The notes: generated by a model not told the origin, from the sequence alone. 64,000 bases of DNA from an uncultured Chloroflexia bacterium (GCA_963813535.1 CAWEZH010000002.1:736001-800000); one strand, 5' to 3'; positions 50,110 through 61,581 are shown, counted from the first letter of the stretch. Numbers and translations are program-made.

Positions 50110-52419
50110 ATGGACCCCGTCCTCGCTGCGGCACGGCCCGCGTTCGATCCTGCGGACGTCGTCGATATCGCTCGACGGACGTTCGACGTCGAGTCGGGCG
50201 GCGCCCGCGATCTCGGCAGCGAGCGCGACCAGGCGTTCCTCCTCCTCGACGCGTCGGATCGTCCGCTGGCGGTCATGAAGGTGTCGAACATCGCCGAGGA
50301 CCCGCGGACGCTCGACATGGAGGCGCTTGCGGTCCTCCATGCGAGCCGGGTGGATCCCATGTTGCCGTTGGCGATCCCGTGGCTCGCGCCCGGCGCCGCG
50401 AGCACGTCCGTGGACCCGGTCGACCGTCGCGTCCCGATCTCGGCCGCGGACGGCGACCACCACGTCCGCATGTACTCCGTGCTGCCGGGACGGACACGGG
50501 TGGACGCCATGGACCTGTCAGATGCCGCCCTCGGCGAATGGGGTGAGGTGGCGGCGCGAGTCGGTCGCGCGTTGCGCGGCTTCTTCCATCCGTCGGCGCA
50601 GCGCACGATGCTCTGGGACGTCCAGCACGCCGCACGATCGCGCGAGCTGCTCGGAGCGATCCGTGACACCGATCACCGCGATCTCGTGGAGGTCGTGCTC
50701 GACCGCTTCGAAACCACGGTCATGCCGGTGTGGCCAGCACTGCGCGCGCAGGTCGTCCACGGCGACCTGACCACAGACAACGCCCTCACCGACGCCGCCG
50801 GCATGGTCAGCGGCATCGTCGATTTCGGCGACATGAGTCACAGCGCGCTGGTCACCGATCTCGCATCGCTGCTCGACTCGCTGCTCAACGACAGGACCGA
50901 CGACGAGCTCTTCCGCTCTGCGCGGCTGGTGCTCGACGGCTACCAGCGGATCACGCCACTCGAGCCGGTCGAGCTGCGCCTCCTGCCGGAGCTCTTGGCA
51001 GCCCGTGCCGCGGTCACGATCGCGATCTCGTCGTGGCGCGCCGGGCGCGGTCTCGAGGACGCGACGTTCGCGGAGCGCTACAACGGGTCGGTCGCCGCGA
51101 CGATCCGCACGCTGCTCGATGTCGGCTGGGACGAGGCTGCTCGCCGGTTCGGTGCCGCGAGCCACGCATCTCCGTCGAGTGGCCTTGCTGCGCGGCGGGA
51201 GGCCGTGCTCGGACCGGCGATGGAGGCACTCACGTACGAGGAGCCGATCCACGTCGTGAGCGCGAGCGGCGTGTGGATGACGGCGGCCGACGGGCGTCGG
51301 TACCTCGACGCGTACAACAACGTCCCGTGCGTCGGGCACGGCCATCCGCGGGTCGCCGAGGCGATCGCCCGGCAGGGTCGACAGGTCAACACCAACATGC
51401 GCTACCTGCACGAGACGGCGATCGAGCTTGCCGAGCGGCTCGTGGCGACGATGCCACCCGAGGCCGGCCTCGACACCGTCATGTTCGTGAACTCGGGATC
51501 GGAGGCGAACGACGTCGCGTGGCGGCTGGCGACGAGTTTCACGGGGAACGACGGGGCGCTCTGTACCGCCTTCGCGTACCACGGCGTGACCGAAGCCACC
51601 GCCGCCTTGTCACCCGAGTCGTGGCAGGCCTCGCGCCGGCCGGCACATGTCGAGACCTGGGCGCCACCGGACCGCCTGCGCGGGTCGAACCTCGACGGCG
51701 AGCCGTTCAGCGCGGCGGTCGCCCGGCTCCGGGAGCGCGGGCTCGCCCCGGCCGCGACGATCCTCGACGGTGTGCTGACGAGCGACGGCTTCCTCGACGC
51801 GGGCCCGGCCCTTGCCGCGGAGTGGCTCGCGGCGACCCGGGCGGCCGGGGGCCTGTGGATCGCCGACGAGGTCCAGGGCGGTCACGGTCGCACCGGACGG
51901 GACATGTGGTCGTTCCAGCGCCTGGGCATCACGCCCGACATCGTCACGCTCGGCAAGCCGATGGGCAACGGCCACCCGGTCGGGGCGGTCGTGACCCGCC
52001 GGGAGATCGCAGCCAGGTTCGCGGACGAGACGGTGTTCTTCAGTACGTTCGGCGGCAACCCCGTCTCCGCGGCGGCAGCCATCGCCGTATTGGACGTCAT
52101 CGACGACGAGTGCGTGCTGGAGCGCGTCACGCTCGTCGGAGCCGCGCTGGTCGACGCGATCCGGTCGGTCGCCCTGCCCTACCCCGCCGTCCGCGACGTG
52201 CGCGGGGTGGGTCTGGCGATCGGCGTCGAGATCACGGACGTCGACACGGCTCGCGCGATCAAGGAGGACCTGCGCCGGCGCGGCGTTCTGATCGGCACCG
52301 CCGGTCGTGATGGGAATGTCTTGAAGGTCCGTCCGCCCCTGGCCTTCTCCGTGGCCGACGTCCGGGTGTTCGCGGACGCCCTGGCGGCGACCCTCGCTTC
52401 TCTCGGAGCGGGCGCCTAA
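50110..52419 (+). CDS. Fusion of APH-like kinase and class III aminotransferase-fold domain (hydroxylysine kinase / phospho-lyase type)
   Basis: LGSERD, HGDL..DN, DFGD; [45 protein letters not shown]. Confidence 0.88.
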
Positions 52420-53654
52420 CCGGGGCCGGTGCCGACGATCACGAGGTCCCGCGGGAAGCCGGTGAGCCGCTCCATCCGTCTGGCCGTCGCGTCGATCGAC
52501 ACGAGATCCTCGATCCGCACCCCGATCTCGCCGTCGAGGTAGACACCGGGTTCGACCGAGAAGACCGTCGGGCTCGGCAGCGGCGCATCGGTCGCCCGCC
52601 TGCTGAGCGTCGGGGCCTCGTGCGTTGCGAGTCCGATGCCGTGGCCCAGGCTGTGCCCGAAGTGCTCGCCGTGCCCGGCGGCCCCGATGACCTCGCGGGC
52701 GATCGCATCGACCGCACGGCCCGACGGCAGGTCGCCACCTCGATCGAGCGCCTCCTGGAGCGCCTCCATCGCGGTCGCCTGGGCGCGTGCCACGAGCTCG
52801 TACACCTCGGCGTCGCGCGACGACGGCTCGCCCACGAACAGCGTTCGCGTCATGTCGCTTCGATAGCCACCGACCTGCGCGCCGAAGTCGAGCAGCAGGA
52901 CGGCGCGATCCGACACCGGCCGGTCTCCGGGTGCGCCGTGGGGCAGCGCCGCCTCCGGCCCGGACAGGCACGCGACGTCGAACGCGAGGGCCTCCGCACC
53001 GCTCGTGCGCATCGCCCATTCGAGCCGGAGCGCAAGGTCCCTCTCGCTGACACCCGGACGGATATCGGGCAGCAGCGCGGCAAGCGCGCGGTCGGCCACC
53101 GCGCAGGCCGCGGCGATCCGCTCGATCTCGGCGGGCTCCTTGGTCGCCCGATCCTGCTCGATCCAGCCTTCGATCGGCACGAGCTCGACGTCCGGTGCGG
53201 CGGCAGCCAGACGCTCCCAGACGGCGTGCGGGACGAACGCCGACTCGACACCGACCCGCTTCGCCCCGACCGAGCCGACGAGCTCGGGCCAGCGAGCCTG
53301 GAGGTCGCCGTAGACGATCTCGATCCTGGCCTCTGGCGCCTCGCGGCGGGCCTGGATCTCGTAGCGCGAATCGGCGAACAGGACGAGATCGTCGCCCGAT
53401 AGCAGGAATTGCCCGGAGTTCCCGGCGACCTTCTCCTCGCCGTCGGCGAGGATGAACCCCGTGAGGTAGCGCATGTGCTCGCGGCGGACGCCGAAGTACG
53501 CGTCCAAGCCCGCGCCGGCGAAGCGGTCGCGGACGCGTTCGCGACGGACGGGTCGGGCCGCCCTGTCAGCCTCCTCCCAACGCCGCAGGTCGGCCGGGGT
53601 CGGTGGCCCGGCGAAGTCGGCCGGGGTCGGCCACGCGGCACCGGCGAGCGTCAC
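52416..53654 (-). CDS. Xaa-Pro aminopeptidase (M24)
   Basis: ALPHG, LDFG, YRSDMTRT, HSLGHGIGL..HE, SVEPG.Y, GVRIED. Confidence 0.93.
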   Translation of the reverse strand: MTLAGAAWPTPADFAGPPTPADLRRWEEADRAARPVRRERVRDRFAGAGLDAYFGVRREHMRYLTGFILADGEEKVAGNSGQFLLSGDDLVLFADSRYEIQARREAPEARIEIVYGDLQARWPELVGSVGAKRVGVESAFVPHAVWERLAAAAPDVELVPIEGWIEQDRATKEPAEIERIAAACAVADRALAALLPDIRPGVSERDLALRLEWAMRTSGAEALAFDVACLSGPEAALPHGAPGDRPVSDRAVLLLDFGAQVGGYRSDMTRTLFVGEPSSRDAEVYELVARAQATAMEALQEALDRGGDLPSGRAVDAIAREVIGAAGHGEHFGHSLGHGIGLATHEAPTLSRRATDAPLPSPTVFSVEPGVYLDGEIGVRIEDLVSIDATARRMERLTGFPRDLVIVGTGPG

Positions 53655-55057
53655 GGGATGTAGCCGTATTTCTTCCGGTTCGCGTCGTGTTGCTTCTTGG
53701 TCTTGGCGAAGGCGTGCTTCCCATCGGTCTCGGGGATGGCCAGGAAGTAGATGTACTTGTCGGCCGTGTCTGGATGGAGCGCCGCGTCGATCGAGGCGAG
53801 CGTCGGTGTCGCGATCGGCCCGGGGATGAGCCCGGGCTGGGTGTACGTCTGGTAGCCCATCAGCTCCGGCGGCAGCGGGACCTCACGGAGCGGTGCTTCG
53901 GGCACGACCCAGAACCGATAGTCCTGCCACTTCTCGAAGTCGAGGGCGTCCAACTGGACGGTGTCGTTCGCGTAGAGGACCGTCGGATCGGCGTTGAGGA
54001 TCTTGTTCTTGATGCCCGGGATGCCGTCCATCCGGTTCTGGTACACGCCGGCGATGAGCGCCCGCTCTTCGTCGAGGACGGCCTCTCGCTCGACGATCGA
54101 GGCGAGCGAGAGGACCTGGTAGAACGTCAGCCCGCGATCCGCGGCGACCTTGAGCTTGTCGTCGCCGACCGCTGTGTGGAACCCGTCGAGCATCTTGCGG
54201 ATCAGCTCCTCGGGTGTCGTGTCGGGCAGCAATCGGTACGTCCCCGGCCAGAGGAAGCCCTCGAGCGATGCACCGTCGGGCGCATCCTGGAGGACACGAC
54301 GAAGCCACGGGTAGTCGGCGAGCAGCGCCTCGGGCGGCTCCTTGGCGAGCTCGTAGAACTCTCGCGGATCCATCTCGAGGGCCTCACCATCGGTCTTCTT
54401 CTTCTGCAGGAGCGCGGTGATCTGCTCGAGACGAAGCGCGGTCCGCAGGTCCACTTCGATGTACGGATTCGGCGGTGGGGCGAGCAGCGCCGAGACCAGC
54501 TGGTCTGGCGTCATGTTGCCGCGCAGCACGAATGTCCCCTGCTGGAGCGCGCCGGTGAGGTCGCGCTGACTGGCGAGGAAGATGAACGCCCGCGGATCGC
54601 GGATGAGACCCTCTGCGCCCAGGCGCGTGGCGATGGTCGACGCGGTGTCACCGTCTTCGACCACGAACTCGACCTGCTCGGCGTTGGTCGAGACCGGCTG
54701 GGTCAACGCCGTTCCGAGGTCCTCGCGCACGATGTCGGCCACGAACGGGAGACCCAGCGCCCCGGGGCTGTCTTCGGCCCAGGAGAGGATCGCGCCGTTG
54801 ACGAGCGGCCGCAACGCGGTGAGGGCGACGACCAGGACGAGGCCGGCCAGTAGGACCGCGAACAGCACGAACTTGATCAGCCCGACGACCCCGCCCCCAC
54901 CACTGCCTCGTCGGCGACCGTTTCGACCTTCCTTCCCGGACCGACGCGACGGTTCGAAGCCCTCCGGGACGTACTCGGTCGCGTAGGCGTCCGGCTCGTA
55001 GCGTCGGGCGTGCGGGGTTCGTCCGTCGCGCGGGCGGCCGCCCGAGCGGATCGTCAT
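53651..55057 (-). CDS. mltG: Endolytic transglycosylase MltG
   Basis: TM helix, LEGFLWPGTY, LASIVERE, IAGVY.NR, ADPTV.Y, Y.TY...GL.PGPI, YIYF. Confidence 0.92.
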   Translation of the reverse strand: MTIRSGGRPRDGRTPHARRYEPDAYATEYVPEGFEPSRRSGKEGRNGRRRGSGGGGVVGLIKFVLFAVLLAGLVLVVALTALRPLVNGAILSWAEDSPGALGLPFVADIVREDLGTALTQPVSTNAEQVEFVVEDGDTASTIATRLGAEGLIRDPRAFIFLASQRDLTGALQQGTFVLRGNMTPDQLVSALLAPPPNPYIEVDLRTALRLEQITALLQKKKTDGEALEMDPREFYELAKEPPEALLADYPWLRRVLQDAPDGASLEGFLWPGTYRLLPDTTPEELIRKMLDGFHTAVGDDKLKVAADRGLTFYQVLSLASIVEREAVLDEERALIAGVYQNRMDGIPGIKNKILNADPTVLYANDTVQLDALDFEKWQDYRFWVVPEAPLREVPLPPELMGYQTYTQPGLIPGPIATPTLASIDAALHPDTADKYIYFLAIPETDGKHAFAKTKKQHDANRKKYGYIP

Positions 55058-55551
55058 GGGGTCGTCTCCATCGTGGGCCGGGCCTGGGCGGACCTGATCT
55101 CGCGGCGGCTGTCGAGCTCATCTTGCAGGATGATCGCCGCGGCTTCCCGATCGACGCGCGCACGGTAGGCGTCACGCTGCGTCCGCGAAGGCGGCCCGCC
55201 GGATCGTCCGCGGCTCATCGGACCGAGTCTGGTCTCGGCCACGTGGCTGCTCAGCCGCTCGTCGCGCAGCCCGATCGAGACCCGCTCGCCGAGGTGCGTG
55301 GTGATCCCGTCGACCCAGGTGCGGGTCGCGGCGGCCTGTGGCCCCTCGTGCCCGGCCGCATCGATCGGCAACCCGACGATGAGCTGCGTGACGGCATGCC
55401 GCTCGATGAGCGTGAGCAGCGCGGCCGCATCCGCCTCCACCGTGCGTCCGCGGCGGAGCGTCACGAGGGCTCGGGCACCGACGTCCGGGCCGTCGGCGAT
55501 GGCCACGCCGATCCGGCGCTCCCCGAGATCGACGCCGAGCAGCGCGGTCAT
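55054..55551 (-). CDS. ruvX: RuvX/YqgF family nuclease
   Basis: LGVDLGERRIGVA, VGLP, DERLSS, VD..AA..ILQ. Confidence 0.93.
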   Translation of the reverse strand: MTALLGVDLGERRIGVAIADGPDVGARALVTLRRGRTVEADAAALLTLIERHAVTQLIVGLPIDAAGHEGPQAAATRTWVDGITTHLGERVSIGLRDERLSSHVAETRLGPMSRGRSGGPPSRTQRDAYRARVDREAAAIILQDELDSRREIRSAQARPTMETTP

Positions 55552-57422
55552 GGTTCGACGACCTCGGCCGTCCGAACGTCGACGCGCGCATCGAAGGTCG
55601 GGATCGTGCCGACCCAATCCGGCCAGACCGACAGCTCGGCCTGGCCGTACCTATCGAGGATGGCCTGGGCATCGGCCAGGGGCTTACCACGGATCTCGGC
55701 CTCGATCGCGGCCGGGTCGATCTGCAGCACCTGGCGTGCGGTGATGGTCACGGGGAACGAGATCACGCCGGCCTCGACCTGGCCGGGCGACGGCGTGACG
55801 TCGCTGGAACCCTCGACCAGCGCATAACCCTGTTCCACCTGCGGCGCGATGTTCGCGTCGGCGACCTCCTGGACTGCCGCCTCGTCGACCGCCTGGACCG
55901 TTCCGGTCGCCATCGCCCCAAGCTCGAACGATTCGATCTCGTCGCCGAGCAAGGTGGCCGGGTCCACGCTGTAGCTCGCCTCGCCGAGGACTCCCGTCTC
56001 CGGGAAGACGGTCGTGCCATCAGCGACCAATGTCGGGTCGGTCAGCTGCTCGGCAAAGGCCGTGGCGAGCTGGGCGTCGACCGCCTTGGTCGCGGCAGCG
56101 ATGTCGGCCTGGACGACGCGCGGGAACTCGTCCCGTTTCCCGCCTCGTGTCGGCTCGGGATTCGTCACGTCGAGGGTCACCGGGTTCTCATCGCGCGGGA
56201 TGACGTGGATCGCGTTGGCCTCGACGTTGCCCTCCGGTCCGGCGTTCGCGGCCCGCACCTTGACCGCCGCCGACGTCGGGAACACCTGGAGCCCGACGAG
56301 CTCGGCCGGCGGGATCGTGATCGAGCGCTCGGTCCGGAAGCGGATCCCGTTCTCGGTACTGACAGTGCTGCCCTTCGGGATCGTGTTGGAGTCGGTGAAA
56401 TCCTTGTTCCGGAAACGGACGGTGCCGGTCGCCGCAGTCTCCTCGACGCGCTTGCCGGTCACCTCGAACGGCATCGTCGCCTCGACCGGGATGTCCTTCG
56501 TGACCGCCGGGACCGTCCGGCCGACCGGATCCGGCTCGGTCGCCGAGGGATCCGCCACGATCCGCAGCGGGATCGGTCCGATCACGCTCTCGCGGGGCGC
56601 GATCACGGCGGTCGCCGTCGGCAGGAACACGAACGCGCCCACCCCACCGACGACGAGCGCCAGACCGAGGACGGCCGCCCCGGCCACGATCGGCGTTCGG
56701 CGCAGACCCGCTGCCAACCCCTCACCCGCCGGCACCGGCCTGACCCGGGAGCCAGCCGGGATCGGCTCGGACGGCGTGTCGGCCACGACCCGCGCCGCCG
56801 GGACGGCCGCAGGGGCGCGGTGCGAGGCGGTCACTGCCGCGTCGCGCGGCGGTGGGCCCGGCACGTCCGAGGGGAGCGCCGCCGCGCCGCCTGTCGTGGT
56901 GCCCGCCGCCGCGACCGTGGCTCCGGCAGCCGCCAGCCCGACGGGCCCGGCGGATCCCGGCGTGGCGTCGATGGCCGCACCGTCGCGGTCACCACGGGGC
57001 TTGCGTCCGCCGCTCCCTCGCGGTGATGCCCTCGATGCCCCCACGGCGGTCGCCGCGGCAGCGGCTGCTGTATGTCCCGTGTCGTCGCGTTCCTCAGCGG
57101 CCGCCTCAGGCGTTGCCTCGGCGGACGGAGCGACCGAGCCGCCCTCCTGCACCGACGATTCGTACTCGGTCACGCTCGCGAAGATCGGCAGACCAGCAGA
57201 CGCGGCCAGAGCGCGTGTCGCAGCGTCACTCGCCACGATCGCCAGTCGCTTGCCGTTCAGCGTCGCGTCCCGGGCGAGCAACCGGAAGTTGATGCGCGAC
57301 GTCGCCACCCGCGAGCCGTTCGGCAGCACGATCGCGATCCGGCTCGTCTCCGCGGCGCGCACGCGGGTCGCCGCGGTCGTGATCTCGTCGTCGATGTCGA
57401 GATACAGGATCCGGACGTCCAC
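55548..57422 (-). CDS. Single-pass membrane protein: N-terminal alpha/beta domain, disordered linker, TM helix, baseplate-J-like C-terminal region
   Basis: YLDIDDEIT N-terminus; TM AAVLGLALVVGGVGAFVFLP; A.G.V.F.N, IPKGSTVST..GIRFRT, V.A...G.EGNV..N.I, V.N..PT.GG. Confidence 0.75.
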   Translation of the reverse strand: MDVRILYLDIDDEITTAATRVRAAETSRIAIVLPNGSRVATSRINFRLLARDATLNGKRLAIVASDAATRALAASAGLPIFASVTEYESSVQEGGSVAPSAEATPEAAAEERDDTGHTAAAAAATAVGASRASPRGSGGRKPRGDRDGAAIDATPGSAGPVGLAAAGATVAAAGTTTGGAAALPSDVPGPPPRDAAVTASHRAPAAVPAARVVADTPSEPIPAGSRVRPVPAGEGLAAGLRRTPIVAGAAVLGLALVVGGVGAFVFLPTATAVIAPRESVIGPIPLRIVADPSATEPDPVGRTVPAVTKDIPVEATMPFEVTGKRVEETAATGTVRFRNKDFTDSNTIPKGSTVSTENGIRFRTERSITIPPAELVGLQVFPTSAAVKVRAANAGPEGNVEANAIHVIPRDENPVTLDVTNPEPTRGGKRDEFPRVVQADIAAATKAVDAQLATAFAEQLTDPTLVADGTTVFPETGVLGEASYSVDPATLLGDEIESFELGAMATGTVQAVDEAAVQEVADANIAPQVEQGYALVEGSSDVTPSPGQVEAGVISFPVTITARQVLQIDPAAIEAEIRGKPLADAQAILDRYGQAELSVWPDWVGTIPTFDARVDVRTAEVVEP

Positions 57423-57423
57423 G

Positions 57424-58686
57424 TCAGACCTTCATCGCGCGGAGGACCCGCTTGAGCGCGACATCGAGCGGATCGGCGATCGTCTGGAGCTCGATCGCCT
57501 GGTACGCGAGACCGAGGGGTGTGACGTCCTGCTGGTCGACCAGGAGGTCGGTCGCGTCGACCACGGTCTCGATCTGGTCCGGAGCCAGGACGGTGACCTC
57601 CGGGGGCCGGGCGAAGGGCATCCGCTTCCAGAACGTCTCGGCGGCAAGCGCCTCGCGGATCTCAGGCAAGCGCGACCCACCGCCGCACAGGAAGATCCGG
57701 CCGGGCAGCAGATCGCCACCCGACAGTTCCTCCATCACGAGCTCGACACCGGCGGCCCACACGCGGACATCGTCGCCGATGATGTTCGCGATGTCCTCCC
57801 GGCCCTCGACCTCGAGTCCGCGGGCGTAGTCGACCTTCAGCGATTCGGCACGTGGGAACGGCAGGTCGAGCCGGTCGGCGATCGACTTCGTGAAGGCTCG
57901 GCCACCGAGCGCGAACATGCGCGTCCCCTCGATGCCGCCCTGGCGCACGAGGGCGACGTCGGTCGTGCCGCCGCCGACGTCGACGAACAGGGCACCGGTC
58001 TGGCGGATCTGGTCGGTGCCGAGGACCCGCGCCACCGCATACGGCTCGGCGACGATCTCGAGCAGCTCCAGATCGAGTTGCGACGCGACGCTCTGGAGCG
58101 CGCCGAGGTGCACGAGCGGCGCGAAGGCGTTGAAGATGCCGATCCTGACGTGACGGCCCTGGAACCCGACGGGGTTGGTCAGTGCATACCCATCGATCGA
58201 CGCGGACGTCACCGCCGCATGGACCAGCCGCACATCGACGTGCGGGAGTCCGGTCTCCCAGGTGATGGCGCGCTCGGCCTCGATCAGGGCCTCCCGCTGG
58301 ACGCCGTCGATCAGCTTCTGGAGCTCCGCCTCGGAGATCGGCTGGTCCGGACGTTTGCGCTCCTGGCTGTGCGTGGTCGTGAATCCCTTGACCAGCTCAC
58401 CGGCGATGCCGATGACGACCTGGCTCGGTCGGAAGCCGGCCATCTCCTCGGCTTCCTGGAGCGCCACCGCGCAGTTATCGACGACCGCCGCGATATCCGC
58501 GACGGTCCCTGATTGCATGTGCGAGAGGCCCTGCCTCTTGCGGCCGACGCCGCGCACCGTGCCGAGGCCCTCGTCGTCGATCTCGAAGACCAGGGCCTTG
58601 GCGAACTCGGTCCCGACGTCGAGAGCCGTGCACGCTGCCAGGTCGTCGGCCCCATCGCGTTGCCAGATCCGGCGCCAGAAGGCCAT
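57424..58686 (-). CDS. FtsA-like actin-fold ATPase
   Basis: ALDVGTEFAK (phosphate 1), AEPYAVA (connect 1), DVGGGTTDV (phosphate 2), GG..FT..IA...AESLK, LCGGGSRL (adenosine). Confidence 0.88.
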   Translation of the reverse strand: MAFWRRIWQRDGADDLAACTALDVGTEFAKALVFEIDDEGLGTVRGVGRKRQGLSHMQSGTVADIAAVVDNCAVALQEAEEMAGFRPSQVVIGIAGELVKGFTTTHSQERKRPDQPISEAELQKLIDGVQREALIEAERAITWETGLPHVDVRLVHAAVTSASIDGYALTNPVGFQGRHVRIGIFNAFAPLVHLGALQSVASQLDLELLEIVAEPYAVARVLGTDQIRQTGALFVDVGGGTTDVALVRQGGIEGTRMFALGGRAFTKSIADRLDLPFPRAESLKVDYARGLEVEGREDIANIIGDDVRVWAAGVELVMEELSGGDLLPGRIFLCGGGSRLPEIREALAAETFWKRMPFARPPEVTVLAPDQIETVVDATDLLVDQQDVTPLGLAYQAIELQTIADPLDVALKRVLRAMKV

Positions 58687-61445
58687 CAGCCCCCCGCGCC
58701 GAGCCGTTCGGCGACCGAGCTCCGGACCGCGGCCTCTGCCTCTGCCAGACCGTCGCGGCGGGTGCCCATGCCCTGGGCCATCTGCGGACGGCCACCGCCC
58801 TTCGCGCCGATCGGCCCGGCCGCCACCTTCACGAGGTCGCCAGCCGACAGCCCGCGATCGACCAGGTCGTCCGATACGGTCACCCAGACCTGTGGCGCTT
58901 CCGCGTCGAGGAACATCGCGATGATCCCGCTCCCGAGCGCGACGCGGACCTCCTTGGAGGCGGCCTTGAGCGCATCCATCGACTCGTACGGGACCGTCGC
59001 CACGACGAGCCGGACCCCCGGCACGACCTCCTCGGCGCGGGCCGCAAGCTCGGCAGGTCTGGGCACGCCACCCCCGCCTGCCCGCAGGCGACGCCTCGTC
59101 TCGCGCAGCTCCTCCTGGAGCGCGGCGACGCGATCCTCGAGGCGATCGATGGAGTTGGCGCCGACCACCTCGGCGAGTCGTTCGAGCGTTTCCGAGCGCT
59201 CACGGCTCAGCCGGTCGGCGGTCGCACCGGTCACGGCCTCGATGCGCCGCTGGCCGGACCCGATGCTGCGTTCGCCGGTGATCAGGAAGCCGCCGATCTG
59301 GCCCGTCGCCCGGCAATGCGTCCCGCCGCACAGCTCGAAGCTGTAGTCCTGGACGCGGACCGTGCGCACCGTCTCGCCGTACTTCTCGTCGAAGAAGGCA
59401 TCGGCGCCCCGGGCGATCGCCTCGTCCATCGGCAGGAACTCCACGCTGACCGGTCGATCGTCACGGATGATCCCGTGGACCTCGTCCTCGATCGCCCGCT
59501 TCTCGTCGTCCGTGAGGGCGCGATCGAATGGGTAGTCGAAGCGGAGATAGTCGGGATGGACGAGCGAACCTGCCTGGCGCGCCGAGTTCCCGACGACGTT
59601 CCGCAACGCCCGGTGCAGAAGGTGCGTACCGGTGTGGTTGCGCATCGTGTGGGCGCGTCGGTCGGCGTCGACCACCGCCTCGACGATCTCGCCCACCTTC
59701 AGCCGGCCACGCAGTGTCCCGCGATGGACGATCAGCCCGCCGACGGGGCGCTGCGTGTCCTCGACCGAGAACAGCTCGCTGCCACCGGGCTCTCGGATGA
59801 CGCCCTGGTCCCCGACCTGCCCGCCACCCTCGGCGTAGAACGGTGTCTGGTCGAGCACGACCTCCGCCGCGCCATGGCCGGTCAGCTCGCTGAGCTCCAT
59901 GCCGTCGCGGATGATCGCGACGACGCGGCCCTCTGCTGTTGTCGTGTCGTAACCCAGGAACTCGCTGTCGCCGACACGGCCCTGCATCGCGCCGTAGAGG
60001 GACGCCAGCTCGGCGTGCTTCGCCAATTCGGCCTTCTTGCCCGAACGGCTCCGCTCGCGTTGTTCCGCCAGGGCGGCGTCGAAGCCGGCTCGGTCGATCG
60101 CGACGCCGTACTCGGCCGCGAGCTCGGCCGTCAGGTCGACCGGGAACCCGTAGGTATCGTGGAGCCGGAACGCGACCTCGCCCGGGAGGGCCGGCGCACC
60201 CGCCGGCAGATCCTCGGGTCGCCGCCCGATCACGCGCTCTTCCCCGGTGAGGGGGATGAGCGCCTCCTCGAGGTGGACGGTGCCGGCGTCGAGGGTCCGC
60301 GCGAACTGCACCTCCTCGCGGCCGATCACGGACAGGACCTGGTCGCGCTTCTCGACGAGGTGGGGATAGGCGTCGGCCATGACGTCGATCACCACTGACG
60401 CCGTGTCGGTCATGAACGGCTCCCGTCGGCCGAGCAGGCGTCCATGGCGGACGGCTCGACGCAGGATGCGGCGCAGGACGTAGCCCCTCCCTTCATTGCT
60501 GGGTAGGACGTCGTCCGCGATGAGGAACGTGACGGCACGCGAATGATCGGCGATGACCTGGTAGCTGAACCGCTCCTGCTCGAAGGCACCCGGGTCATGG
60601 CCGAGCAGCTCGCGCATCCGCTCGTGGATCGGCGTGAACAGGTCCGTGTCGTAGTTGGTCGGGACCTGCTGGACGACGCTCGCCAGCCGCTCGAGACCCA
60701 TCCCGGTGTCGACGCCCGGTGCCGGCAACGGCACGAGCGACCCATCGGGCTGGAGGTCGAACTCCATGAACACGAGGTTCCAGATCTCGAGCCAGCGCGG
60801 ACAGGTCTCGCTGTGGTCCGGGATGCACTCCGGACCCTCGCTGAGGTGCGCGCCCCGATCGAAGTGGATCTCGCTACACGGCCCGCACGGTCCGATGTCG
60901 GCCATGCGCCACCAGTTCTTCTCGTCGCCGTTGGGGAAATCGCCCCAGCGCACGAGTCGCTCCGGCGGCAGGCCGATCTCGTCGCGCCAGACGTCGAAGG
61001 CGAGGTCATCGGTCGTGTAGGTGGTCGCGGCGAGCCGCTCGGCGGGGATCCCGAGGTCACGCGTCAGGAAGTCCCATGCCCAGTGGATCGCCTCGCGCTT
61101 GAAATAGTCGCCGAAGCTCCAATTCCCGAGCATCTCGAAGAGCGTGTGGTGACGCGGCGTCCGCCCCACCTCCTCGAAGTCGTTGTGCTTGCCGGCGACG
61201 CGCAGGCTGCGCTGGTAGTCGACCGCCCGTTTGTAACTGCGGGTCTCCTTGCCGGTCAGGACGTCCTTGAACTGGACCATCCCGCTGTTGGTGAACAGCA
61301 GCGTCTGATCGCCGGCGGGCACGAGGCTCGCGCTCGGGACGACCGTGTGGTTCCGCTCAGCGAAGAACTCGATGAACCGGTCACGGAGTTCCGACGCAGG
61401 CCGCCACGCGATCCGGGGATCCGGGGTGACGGGTGGGGTCGACAT
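58686..61445 (-). CDS. alaS: Alanine--tRNA ligase
   Basis: LLFTNSGM.QFK, HHTLFEMLGNWSFGDYFK, DTGMGLER, RNHTGTHLL, ELCGGTH, GGGRP.MAQG. Confidence 0.98.
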   Translation of the reverse strand: MSTPPVTPDPRIAWRPASELRDRFIEFFAERNHTVVPSASLVPAGDQTLLFTNSGMVQFKDVLTGKETRSYKRAVDYQRSLRVAGKHNDFEEVGRTPRHHTLFEMLGNWSFGDYFKREAIHWAWDFLTRDLGIPAERLAATTYTTDDLAFDVWRDEIGLPPERLVRWGDFPNGDEKNWWRMADIGPCGPCSEIHFDRGAHLSEGPECIPDHSETCPRWLEIWNLVFMEFDLQPDGSLVPLPAPGVDTGMGLERLASVVQQVPTNYDTDLFTPIHERMRELLGHDPGAFEQERFSYQVIADHSRAVTFLIADDVLPSNEGRGYVLRRILRRAVRHGRLLGRREPFMTDTASVVIDVMADAYPHLVEKRDQVLSVIGREEVQFARTLDAGTVHLEEALIPLTGEERVIGRRPEDLPAGAPALPGEVAFRLHDTYGFPVDLTAELAAEYGVAIDRAGFDAALAEQRERSRSGKKAELAKHAELASLYGAMQGRVGDSEFLGYDTTTAEGRVVAIIRDGMELSELTGHGAAEVVLDQTPFYAEGGGQVGDQGVIREPGGSELFSVEDTQRPVGGLIVHRGTLRGRLKVGEIVEAVVDADRRAHTMRNHTGTHLLHRALRNVVGNSARQAGSLVHPDYLRFDYPFDRALTDDEKRAIEDEVHGIIRDDRPVSVEFLPMDEAIARGADAFFDEKYGETVRTVRVQDYSFELCGGTHCRATGQIGGFLITGERSIGSGQRRIEAVTGATADRLSRERSETLERLAEVVGANSIDRLEDRVAALQEELRETRRRLRAGGGGVPRPAELAARAEEVVPGVRLVVATVPYESMDALKAASKEVRVALGSGIIAMFLDAEAPQVWVTVSDDLVDRGLSAGDLVKVAAGPIGAKGGGRPQMAQGMGTRRDGLAEAEAAVRSSVAERLGAGG

Positions 61446-61581
61446 CGGCGGCAATGGTACCCAACGCAGCGGGGCCGCCTATGCAAGGTACCCGCGATGT
61501 GCGCGTGCGACCGGCATGATGCGACCGACCTCGTGAGACGGCCAAGGTGGGTCGGTCGGAAACCGCAGACGAGGTGCCCAC

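Follow-up and report, generated by a model that had tools for sequence, protein, structure and literature searches.

The window analysed here is a stretch of 64,000 nucleotides from an uncultured Chloroflexia bacterium (GCA_963813535.1, CAWEZH010000002.1:736001-800000), and its host is a soil-type Chloroflexota genome (G000). Within an alaS-ruvX-mltG operon of this window lie two adjacent genes, one encoding an FtsA-like actin-fold ATPase and the other a bitopic (single-pass membrane) partner protein with a phage baseplate-like ectodomain, and the two make up a real and conserved module which, as far as literature searches show, is undescribed. From its sequence the ATPase is an ancient FtsA paralogue with a complete nucleotide site and not the FtsA of the divisome, and structure prediction suggests that it probably binds the N-terminal domain (N-domain) of the partner. 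We consider it about an even chance that the pair constitutes a two-part cell-envelope module, in which a membrane-associated actin-like scaffold is coupled to an envelope-facing, domesticated phage fold.

The relation of the ATPase to FtsA was apparent from profile searches. It matched Pfam FtsA (PF14450) with 54.2 bits and the FtsA equivalog model TIGR01174 with 110.1 bits over model positions 3-258 (102.3 bits in the genome search), below the cut-off of 175.85, and its best solved relatives were the FtsA entries 7q6f, 7q6g and 7q6d, the first aligning with residues 10-277 at an E-value of 5e-16. As this alignment takes in the 1C-type insert, the protein is predicted to have an FtsA-type actin fold, with subdomain 1C in place of 1B. 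Other actin-like families scored weakly, with 20.5 bits for PilM_2 (cut-off 27), 29.7 bits for the PilM model TIGR01175 (cut-off 133), 52.5 and 20.1 bits for the EutJ/Hsp70-type models NF011660 and PF00012, and about 30 bits for MreB models with cut-offs of 293-366 (TIGR00904, 29.2 bits against 365.75). The initial annotation, made from the sequence without database searches, had set the ATPase apart from canonical FtsA and had proposed a search for a separate ftsA-ftsZ locus and a phylogeny, and both bear out the distinction. A canonical ftsA (423 bits) adjoins ftsZ at C2:331526-334349 of the same genome, about 460 kb from the ATPase gene, so the ATPase is not the sole FtsA of the genome; the two proteins share 25% identity, and the 2B region of the ATPase is shorter by 19 residues. 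In a tree of 42 FtsA-like and 30 canonical FtsA sequences from the same phylum, computed by a quick search under LG+G4 (no mixture model) with two MreB rows as outgroup and PilM rows not included, each group formed one clade (Shimodaira-Hasegawa approximate likelihood-ratio support 99 and 99) with stem lengths of 1.9 and 1.3 changes per site, which places the ATPase outside the canonical FtsA clade. Canonical FtsA was present in 58 of the 61 sampled genomes, carriers of the paralogue among them. PilM scored above its cut-off in none of these 61 genomes, and in the host genome the PilM search returned nothing at E<=1e-20.

The phosphate-1, phosphate-2 and adenosine motifs (D23/G25/T26, D236/G238/G239/T241/T242 and G335/G336/G337, respectively) were invariant or nearly so among 42 orthologs, in agreement with the initial claim that all actin-fold motifs are in place. 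The protein begins with MAFWRRIW and ends in LKRVLRAMKV, and these two terminal segments, which had been called plausibly amphipathic, gave hydrophobic moments of 0.49 and 0.59, respectively, the C-terminal 14-mer ranking 7 among 407 windows of the protein. The C-terminal pattern RRVxRAMKV is kept across the phylum in the 42 orthologs; the N-terminal extension is basic in all classes and conserved in sequence within Limnocylindria only. Across 80 Limnocylindria-type loci the median identity was 89% for the ATPase, 77% for alaS, 62% each for ruvX and mltG and 52% for the partner, and the ATPase is thus under very strong purifying selection. Apart from these genes, the host genome carries a second FtsZ gene (C2:244408-245352, 377 bits) and two MreB paralogues of 350 and 332 amino acids (C3:560843-561424 and C3:819598-820170, loci L003 and L004). 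All 15 sampled relatives of family f1 have one FtsZ, and only the host genome has two.

The AlphaFold2 model of the partner, built on a 114-row alignment (predicted local distance difference test score, pLDDT, 83), divides into four parts: an alpha/beta domain of residues 1-92 (pLDDT above 95), a disordered linker of about residues 95-247, a helix of residues 246-265 and a beta-rich ectodomain that extends to residue 620 (pLDDT above 95). This layout agrees with the N-domain, Ala/Pro linker, single transmembrane helix and large outer region that had been read from the sequence, with an N-domain of 92 residues in place of about 80. The baseplate-J/gp47-like character proposed for the outer region is confirmed by three kinds of search. 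The partner matched Pfam Baseplate_J (PF04865) with 30.5 bits (cut-off 21.1) over residues 325-428, and PHROG_6 'baseplate wedge subunit' at 2.9e-14. With Foldseek, the ectodomain matched solved wedge proteins of cyanophage A-1(L) (3e-9), phi812, phiCD508, Mu, diffocin and the anti-feeding prophage (AFP) at a probability of 1.00 over about 340-390 columns, and the predicted phage proteins named 'Baseplate J-like' in BFVD at E-values down to 1e-9. The J-family motifs GxxGNV and N..T.GG are conserved in the ectodomain. Rigid-body template modelling (TM) scores against the wedge proteins were low (0.14-0.25), and therefore the domains of the ectodomain may be arranged differently, or flexibly, compared with those proteins. 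By these searches the ectodomain is a complete, domesticated phage baseplate-wedge (J) fold, and the probable N-in topology would place it on the outer side of the membrane. By sequence the partner had no match in PDB up to E=1. For its N-domain, Pfam gave nothing up to E=10 and a profile search of PDB was equally negative (best E 0.14), and the atlas matches of this domain were solely unnamed Chloroflexota clusters, below 0.9. In the host genome the partner is the sole Baseplate_J match; no search for gp7/I-like partners was made. The databases name the ATPase 'cell division protein FtsA' and the partner 'baseplate J/gp47 family protein', the latter from Candidatus Limnocylindrales.

We looked at the complex predicted for the ATPase and the partner. 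With the ATPase alignment and partner residues 1-95, the interface score ipSAE (interaction prediction score from aligned errors) was 0.71 (0.71, 0.67 and 0.74 in the runs), compared with 0.00-0.01 in three controls, so that the interaction expected by the initial annotation is predicted. The mark which this score passes is attained by 58 of 80 solved complexes and by 2 of 110 mismatched pairs, counts that apply roughly only, as custom alignments were used here. The contacts were 100% common to the runs with partner pLDDT of at least 87, and, in the absence of any solved relative of the N-domain, memorised structures are unlikely to account for the pass. On the N-domain the predicted contact takes in residues 11-22, 38-52 and 68-72, and on the ATPase residues 258-272 and 305-317, plus 54-59, 97-98 and 143-147. 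From the FtsA alignment and known domain limits, we read the ATPase side as the putative 2A/2B face beside the interdomain cleft. The predicted interface residues of the N-domain are its most conserved ones (mean entropy 0.86 versus 1.65; matched by 2 of 10000 random sets). L48, where the contact is best defined, is retained by 94% of 32 lineages that have the ATPase and by 22% of 9 that have the partner alone, a comparison which is descriptive only.

The distribution of the pair was surveyed in a sample of 301 Chloroflexota genomes, with E<=1e-25 as the threshold for an ATPase ortholog. The partner family is large (1588 matches among 8000 candidates scored, and 4333 cluster representatives at E<=0.001). 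Of the 301 genomes, 154 gave a partner match, which is a floor as the first look of the search was stricter, and 92 an ATPase ortholog. The expectation that the two genes are conserved together held: the gene immediately upstream of the partner is that of the ATPase, on the same strand, in all 58 genomes with both positions listed, and it takes that place in all 80 Limnocylindria-type loci as well. The pairing is asymmetric, as the partner occurs without an ATPase ortholog in at least 61 sampled genomes. Besides, in loci L135, L136, L137 and L143, where the partner was missed by the search, its N-domain adjoins the ATPase in 4 of 4 checked. The 80 Limnocylindria-type loci kept the gene order, with the ATPase and ruvX in 80, mltG in 79 and alaS in 75, the misses being contig ends. 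A scan of genome contigs with an N-domain motif specific to close relatives returned Limnocylindria-type loci only and therefore gives no view beyond that group. Outside Limnocylindria the order ATPase-partner-ruvX-mltG recurs in many families, with alaS directly upstream in 23 of 30 fetched loci, and the partner keeps its fixed slot by vertical descent in many Chloroflexota families.

In the partner-only loci the partner sits in the same slot, with alaS or other genes directly before it and ruvX-mltG after it, and its N-domain is diverged but mostly kept; the four loci of family f20 lack it. The protein with the outer domain, located before ruvX-mltG, is therefore the constant element, to which about a third of the sampled genomes of the phylum add, on the cytoplasmic side, the ATPase with the docking domain. 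In the partner-only family f9 a family-2/21 glycosyltransferase gene takes the place of the ATPase gene between alaS and the partner (L152:1723-3000 and L157:5273-6997). Family f23 (L133-L136, genomes of 5-7 Mb) has a longer partner, with open frames of 836-914 amino acids and about 1.9 kb from the N-domain to the matched ectodomain, and may hold an extra inserted region.

Loci L045, L056, L063, L081, L104 and L114 carry an ATPase 87-96% identical to that of the window under the labels Patescibacteria group, Saccharimonadales, Thermomicrobiales and Anaerolineaceae, and these divergent labels probably belong to mislabelled metagenome bins. The records labelled Patescibacteria and Saccharimonadales (L045 and L056), whose ATPases are 96% and 90% identical to the window's, were accordingly rejected as evidence from the candidate phyla radiation. 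Protein-atlas leads hint that similar proteins may occur in that radiation, in line with the Patescibacteria named in the initial annotation. Natural fusions were likewise rejected as 'Rosetta-stone' evidence. There were 16 long open reading frames (P0400-P0415) joining alaS, the ATPase, the partner or ruvX, such as the alaS C-terminus with the ATPase, or the ATPase with the partner (P0403 with 980 and P0409 with 985 amino acids), each a single sequence on one contig. We read them as indel or read-through artefacts, since the operon junctions are 1-nucleotide or overlapping and single-base indels would join them.

Gene order and co-occurrence are what suggest a link of the pair to MltG. Downstream of the partner, 37 of 40 fetched loci carry mltG; of the remaining three, two break off at the edge of a contig. 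Across the 301 sampled genomes, 264 gave an MltG match. Among the partner-positive genomes 151 of 154 have MltG, the three exceptions being fragmented assemblies, and 34 of the 37 MltG-negative genomes, all of them small, had no partner match. This co-occurrence fits a role that presupposes a peptidoglycan wall, and no more than that. In Bacillota, IreB/ReoM, which regulates peptidoglycan synthesis, is encoded in this slot between alaS and ruvX. The MltG of the window, itself bitopic, has an Arg/Gly-rich cytoplasmic extension of about 60 residues ahead of its transmembrane helix (residues 1-60, 54880-55057), which could be a further cytoplasmic contact point.

The pair shares features with several known systems and departs from each of them. 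Like FtsA with its bitopic divisome partners (FtsA-FtsN and FtsA-FtsQ/DivIB), it has an ATPase of FtsA-type fold that shows the 1C-type insert, a complete nucleotide site and an amphipathic helix at the C-terminus, and that is predicted to hold a single-pass membrane protein by its cytoplasmic end. Unlike FtsA, it falls in a separate clade and under the equivalog cut-off (110 against 175.85 bits), has the shorter 2B region, and is encoded outside the division and cell-wall (dcw) cluster, away from ftsZ; and unlike the FtsA partners, its membrane protein offers a folded domain of 92 residues instead of a short peptide, with a predicted contact on 2A/2B instead of 1C alone, and carries outside a phage baseplate fold in place of SPOR or POTRA. 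As in MreB-RodZ, a membrane actin-like ATPase would be bound by a bitopic adaptor through a folded domain in the cytoplasm, after which come a long linker, a transmembrane helix and an outer domain, in a wall context, whereas the ATPase is not MreB, two true MreB genes are present in the genome, and the N-domain, with no Pfam match, is not the helix-turn-helix of RodZ. With PilM-PilN and GspL it shares an FtsA/PilM-like actin-fold protein coupled (in GspL, fused) to a bitopic protein; it differs in the PilM scores, far under their cut-offs, in having alaS, ruvX and mltG as neighbours without pilN, pilO or secretin genes, and, going by the model, in a contact through a folded domain where PilN uses an N-terminal peptide. 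The ectodomain as a whole aligns with whole J-family wedge proteins of phages and contractile injection systems such as Mu gp47, a family that also includes P2 gpJ, T4 gp6 and TssF of the type VI secretion system. Unlike these, the partner is anchored in the membrane behind a transmembrane helix and fused to a cytoplasmic domain, and it is an orphan outside any tail or contractile-injection cluster, inherited in a housekeeping operon across the phylum.

In the two-part envelope module that we favour, the ATPase would be held on the inner face of the membrane by its C-terminal amphipathic helix, possibly also by its basic N-terminus, and, as the complex model suggests, would dock on the folded 92-residue cytoplasmic domain of the partner. 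The partner may transmit this contact through the membrane to the outward baseplate-wedge (J) domain, so that an inner actin-like scaffold, if it polymerises, would position or cluster an outer scaffold during growth or remodelling of the peptidoglycan wall. The J fold of phage tails serves as an oligomerising scaffold, and the ectodomain may likewise oligomerise. The actin plus bitopic-protein envelope module that the initial annotation had put forward is supported in this form. Several observations weigh against it. The evidence is all computational, and the function of the module is what we infer from it. The partner-only lineages indicate that the partner can do without the ATPase, and family f20 has no N-domain either; both genes are lacking in some close relatives, namely two tiny genomes of the same order (f2) and a genus (g12) that belongs to the same class. 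The ATPase side of the predicted interface is not enriched for conservation (entropy 1.63 versus 1.49, with 7897 of 10000 random sets as low), its contact residues being no more conserved than the rest of an already very conserved protein. The differences at L48, T15 and S42 between ATPase-linked and partner-only lineages may reflect relatedness alone, the lineage groups not being independent samples. No catalytic or ligand site was evident in the ectodomain, its conserved residues being the J-family fold motifs. As for the wall, 113 MltG-positive genomes had no partner match in a search that gives a floor, which indicates that the partner is not needed for peptidoglycan generally, and the alaS-ruvX-mltG block is functionally mixed and widely conserved, so that a position in it says little on function.

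Other explanations account for part of these observations. The pair could be an assembly platform for a surface structure or a secretion machine, analogous to PilM-PilN or GspL and serving a pilus, a sortase substrate or another surface assembly instead of wall growth. Its architecture is that of those systems, an actin-fold protein with a 1C-type insert and a bitopic partner, the ATPase has the weak PilM_2 and TIGR01175 matches, and phage J proteins are parts of an envelope-crossing machine. We nevertheless consider such a platform improbable, as the PilM scores fall far under their cut-offs, PilM is absent above cut-off from the 61 sampled genomes and from the host at the threshold given above, and the operon holds no pilus, secretion or sortase gene, its neighbours being housekeeping genes and its gene order pointing to mltG. 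Similarly improbable, in our view, is a module whose functional core is the membrane protein, with the ATPase serving as an EutJ-like nucleotide switch or chaperone of the actin/Hsp70 fold, which sets the state of the partner through the N-domain and does not polymerise into a filament. The wider spread of the partner, which keeps its slot without the ATPase, would suit a switch, and so would the scores against the NF011660 and PF00012 models and a predicted contact on the 2A/2B face, close enough to the interdomain cleft for a ligand there to sense which nucleotide state the ATPase is in. On the other hand, the best matches of the ATPase are FtsA throughout, an FtsA-style amphipathic helix is kept at its C-terminus throughout the phylum, and a median identity of 89%, above that of alaS, fits many constrained surfaces such as those of a polymer.

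A specialised division protein, that is an alternative anchor of FtsZ, for example of the second FtsZ of the genome, is less probable still. The ATPase is a member of the FtsA superfamily with a membrane-targeting type of C-terminus, and its host carries two FtsZ genes, but the families with an FtsA-like gene (f1, f3, f7, f17, f21, f22 and f26) have mostly a single FtsZ, and since most lineages with the gene have one FtsZ, the second-FtsZ hypothesis was rejected. In Thermotoga FtsA, subdomain 2B binds the FtsZ tail. The 2B region here is the shorter one, the 2A/2B face is predicted to hold the N-domain of the partner, and the ATPase gene lies far from ftsA-ftsZ. We disfavour most strongly, and hold to be very improbable, the reading that the partner is a phage remnant or a phage-related defence or receptor protein in an accidental neighbourhood, or that the two proteins do not interact. 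Its baseplate fold is of phage origin, yet there are no other tail genes and no second J match in the genome, PADLOC returned no match for either protein, and the slot is fixed and vertically inherited over many Chloroflexota families, with no sign of a patchy, island-like distribution with mobile-element flanks; the ectodomain has a membrane anchor and a conserved cytoplasmic domain, and adjacency in 58 of 58 genomes goes together with a strong predicted contact.

The operon consists of six genes on the minus strand, head to tail, and their coordinates are collected in Table 1. The tight coupling from alaS to pepP was found with the junctions and coordinates that had been claimed for it. Read directly, the TGA of alaS and the ATG of the ATPase have one base in common, one base separates the ATPase stop from the GTG start of the partner, and the partner TGA and the ruvX ATG overlap as ATGA; from the coordinates, ruvX/mltG and mltG/pepP overlap by 4 nucleotides each. 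The flanking genes were identified by Pfam and NCBIfam as RuvX, YceG/MltG, Peptidase_M24 and tRNA-synt_2c, and G+C is about 70% throughout. The operon is bounded on one side by a convergent kinase-aminotransferase fusion gene, which lies at 50110-52419 on the plus strand and encodes a 769-residue phosphotransferase (APH) joined to a class-III aminotransferase, and on the other by a divergent dioxygenase-like gene. The initial remark that the window holds no ftsZ, pilMNO or phage genes is consistent with the ftsA-ftsZ locus outside it, with the sole Baseplate_J gene and with the PilM result for the genome, among those open reading frames of the window that were annotated, which are not all.

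Table 1. Operon genes and protein segments of the ATPase and its partner, in window coordinates
Feature	Coordinates	Strand	Evidence
alaS, alanyl-tRNA synthetase, 922 aa, first of the six operon genes	58686..61454	-	PF01411, 635 bits
FtsA-like actin-fold ATPase, 420 aa (P0001)	57424..58686	-	Pfam, NCBIfam, solved FtsA match, tree
ATPase N-terminal basic/amphipathic extension, residues 1-18, MAFWRRIWQRD..., before the first actin-fold strand	58633..58686	-	hydrophobic moment 0.49
ATPase C-terminal amphipathic helix, residues 403-420, ...DVALKRVLRAMKV; probable membrane-targeting helix	57427..57480	-	moment 0.59; pattern kept phylum-wide
Bitopic partner, 624 aa (P0002)	55548..57422	-	Pfam, AlphaFold2
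Partner N-terminal cytoplasmic alpha/beta domain, residues 1-92; predicted ATPase docking site	57147..57422	-	pLDDT above 95; complex prediction
Partner Ala/Pro/Gly-rich disordered linker, residues 93-243	56694..57146	-	pLDDT below 50
Partner single transmembrane helix, residues about 244-266	56625..56693	-	modelled helix 246-265; probable N-in topology
Partner extracytoplasmic baseplate-wedge (J/gp47-like) domain, residues 267-624	55551..56624	-	Pfam, PHROG, Foldseek
ruvX/yqgF	55054..55551	-	Pfam, NCBIfam; ATG overlaps partner stop
mltG, YceG-family endolytic transglycosylase, bitopic	53651..55057	-	Pfam, NCBIfam
pepP-like M24 aminopeptidase (Peptidase_M24), last gene of the run	52416..53654	-	Pfam

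The literature searches found no paper on the pair, none joining 'baseplate J' with 'FtsA' and none joining 'FtsA-like' with 'Patescibacteria'. None of the papers listed on FtsA paralogues concerns this pair, and the main text of a Saccharibacteria transposon-sequencing (Tn-seq) paper (PMC10633639) has no 'baseplate', 'FtsA', 'MltG' or 'RuvX'. What is newly seen here comprises the partner-only lineages, the loss of the N-domain in f20, an interface that was mapped and tested for conservation, the co-occurrence of the partner with MltG and the rejection of the second-FtsZ idea. As the predicted interface names residues on both proteins, it is directly testable.

Within a major phylum the pair is widespread, and conservation of its ATPase exceeds even that of the aminoacyl-tRNA synthetase encoded next to it. 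A structural fold of phage tails has apparently been co-opted for a housekeeping envelope role, an unusual exaptation. Beyond the two-part envelope module, we tentatively raise a bolder and distinctly less likely possibility, that a complete phage wedge protein was domesticated as the outer arm of an unrecognised cytoskeletal system, in which filaments of an ancient FtsA paralogue capture a new docking domain and pattern an extracellular scaffold governing peptidoglycan growth or division in Chloroflexota and, should the protein-atlas leads hold, in the candidate phyla radiation. The actin and bitopic-adaptor pairs FtsA-FtsN, MreB-RodZ and PilM-PilN organise division, elongation and pilus assembly, respectively. 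The present pair may be a fourth kind beside them, which would add a component to bacterial cell biology in lineages that abound in soil and water but have hardly been studied.

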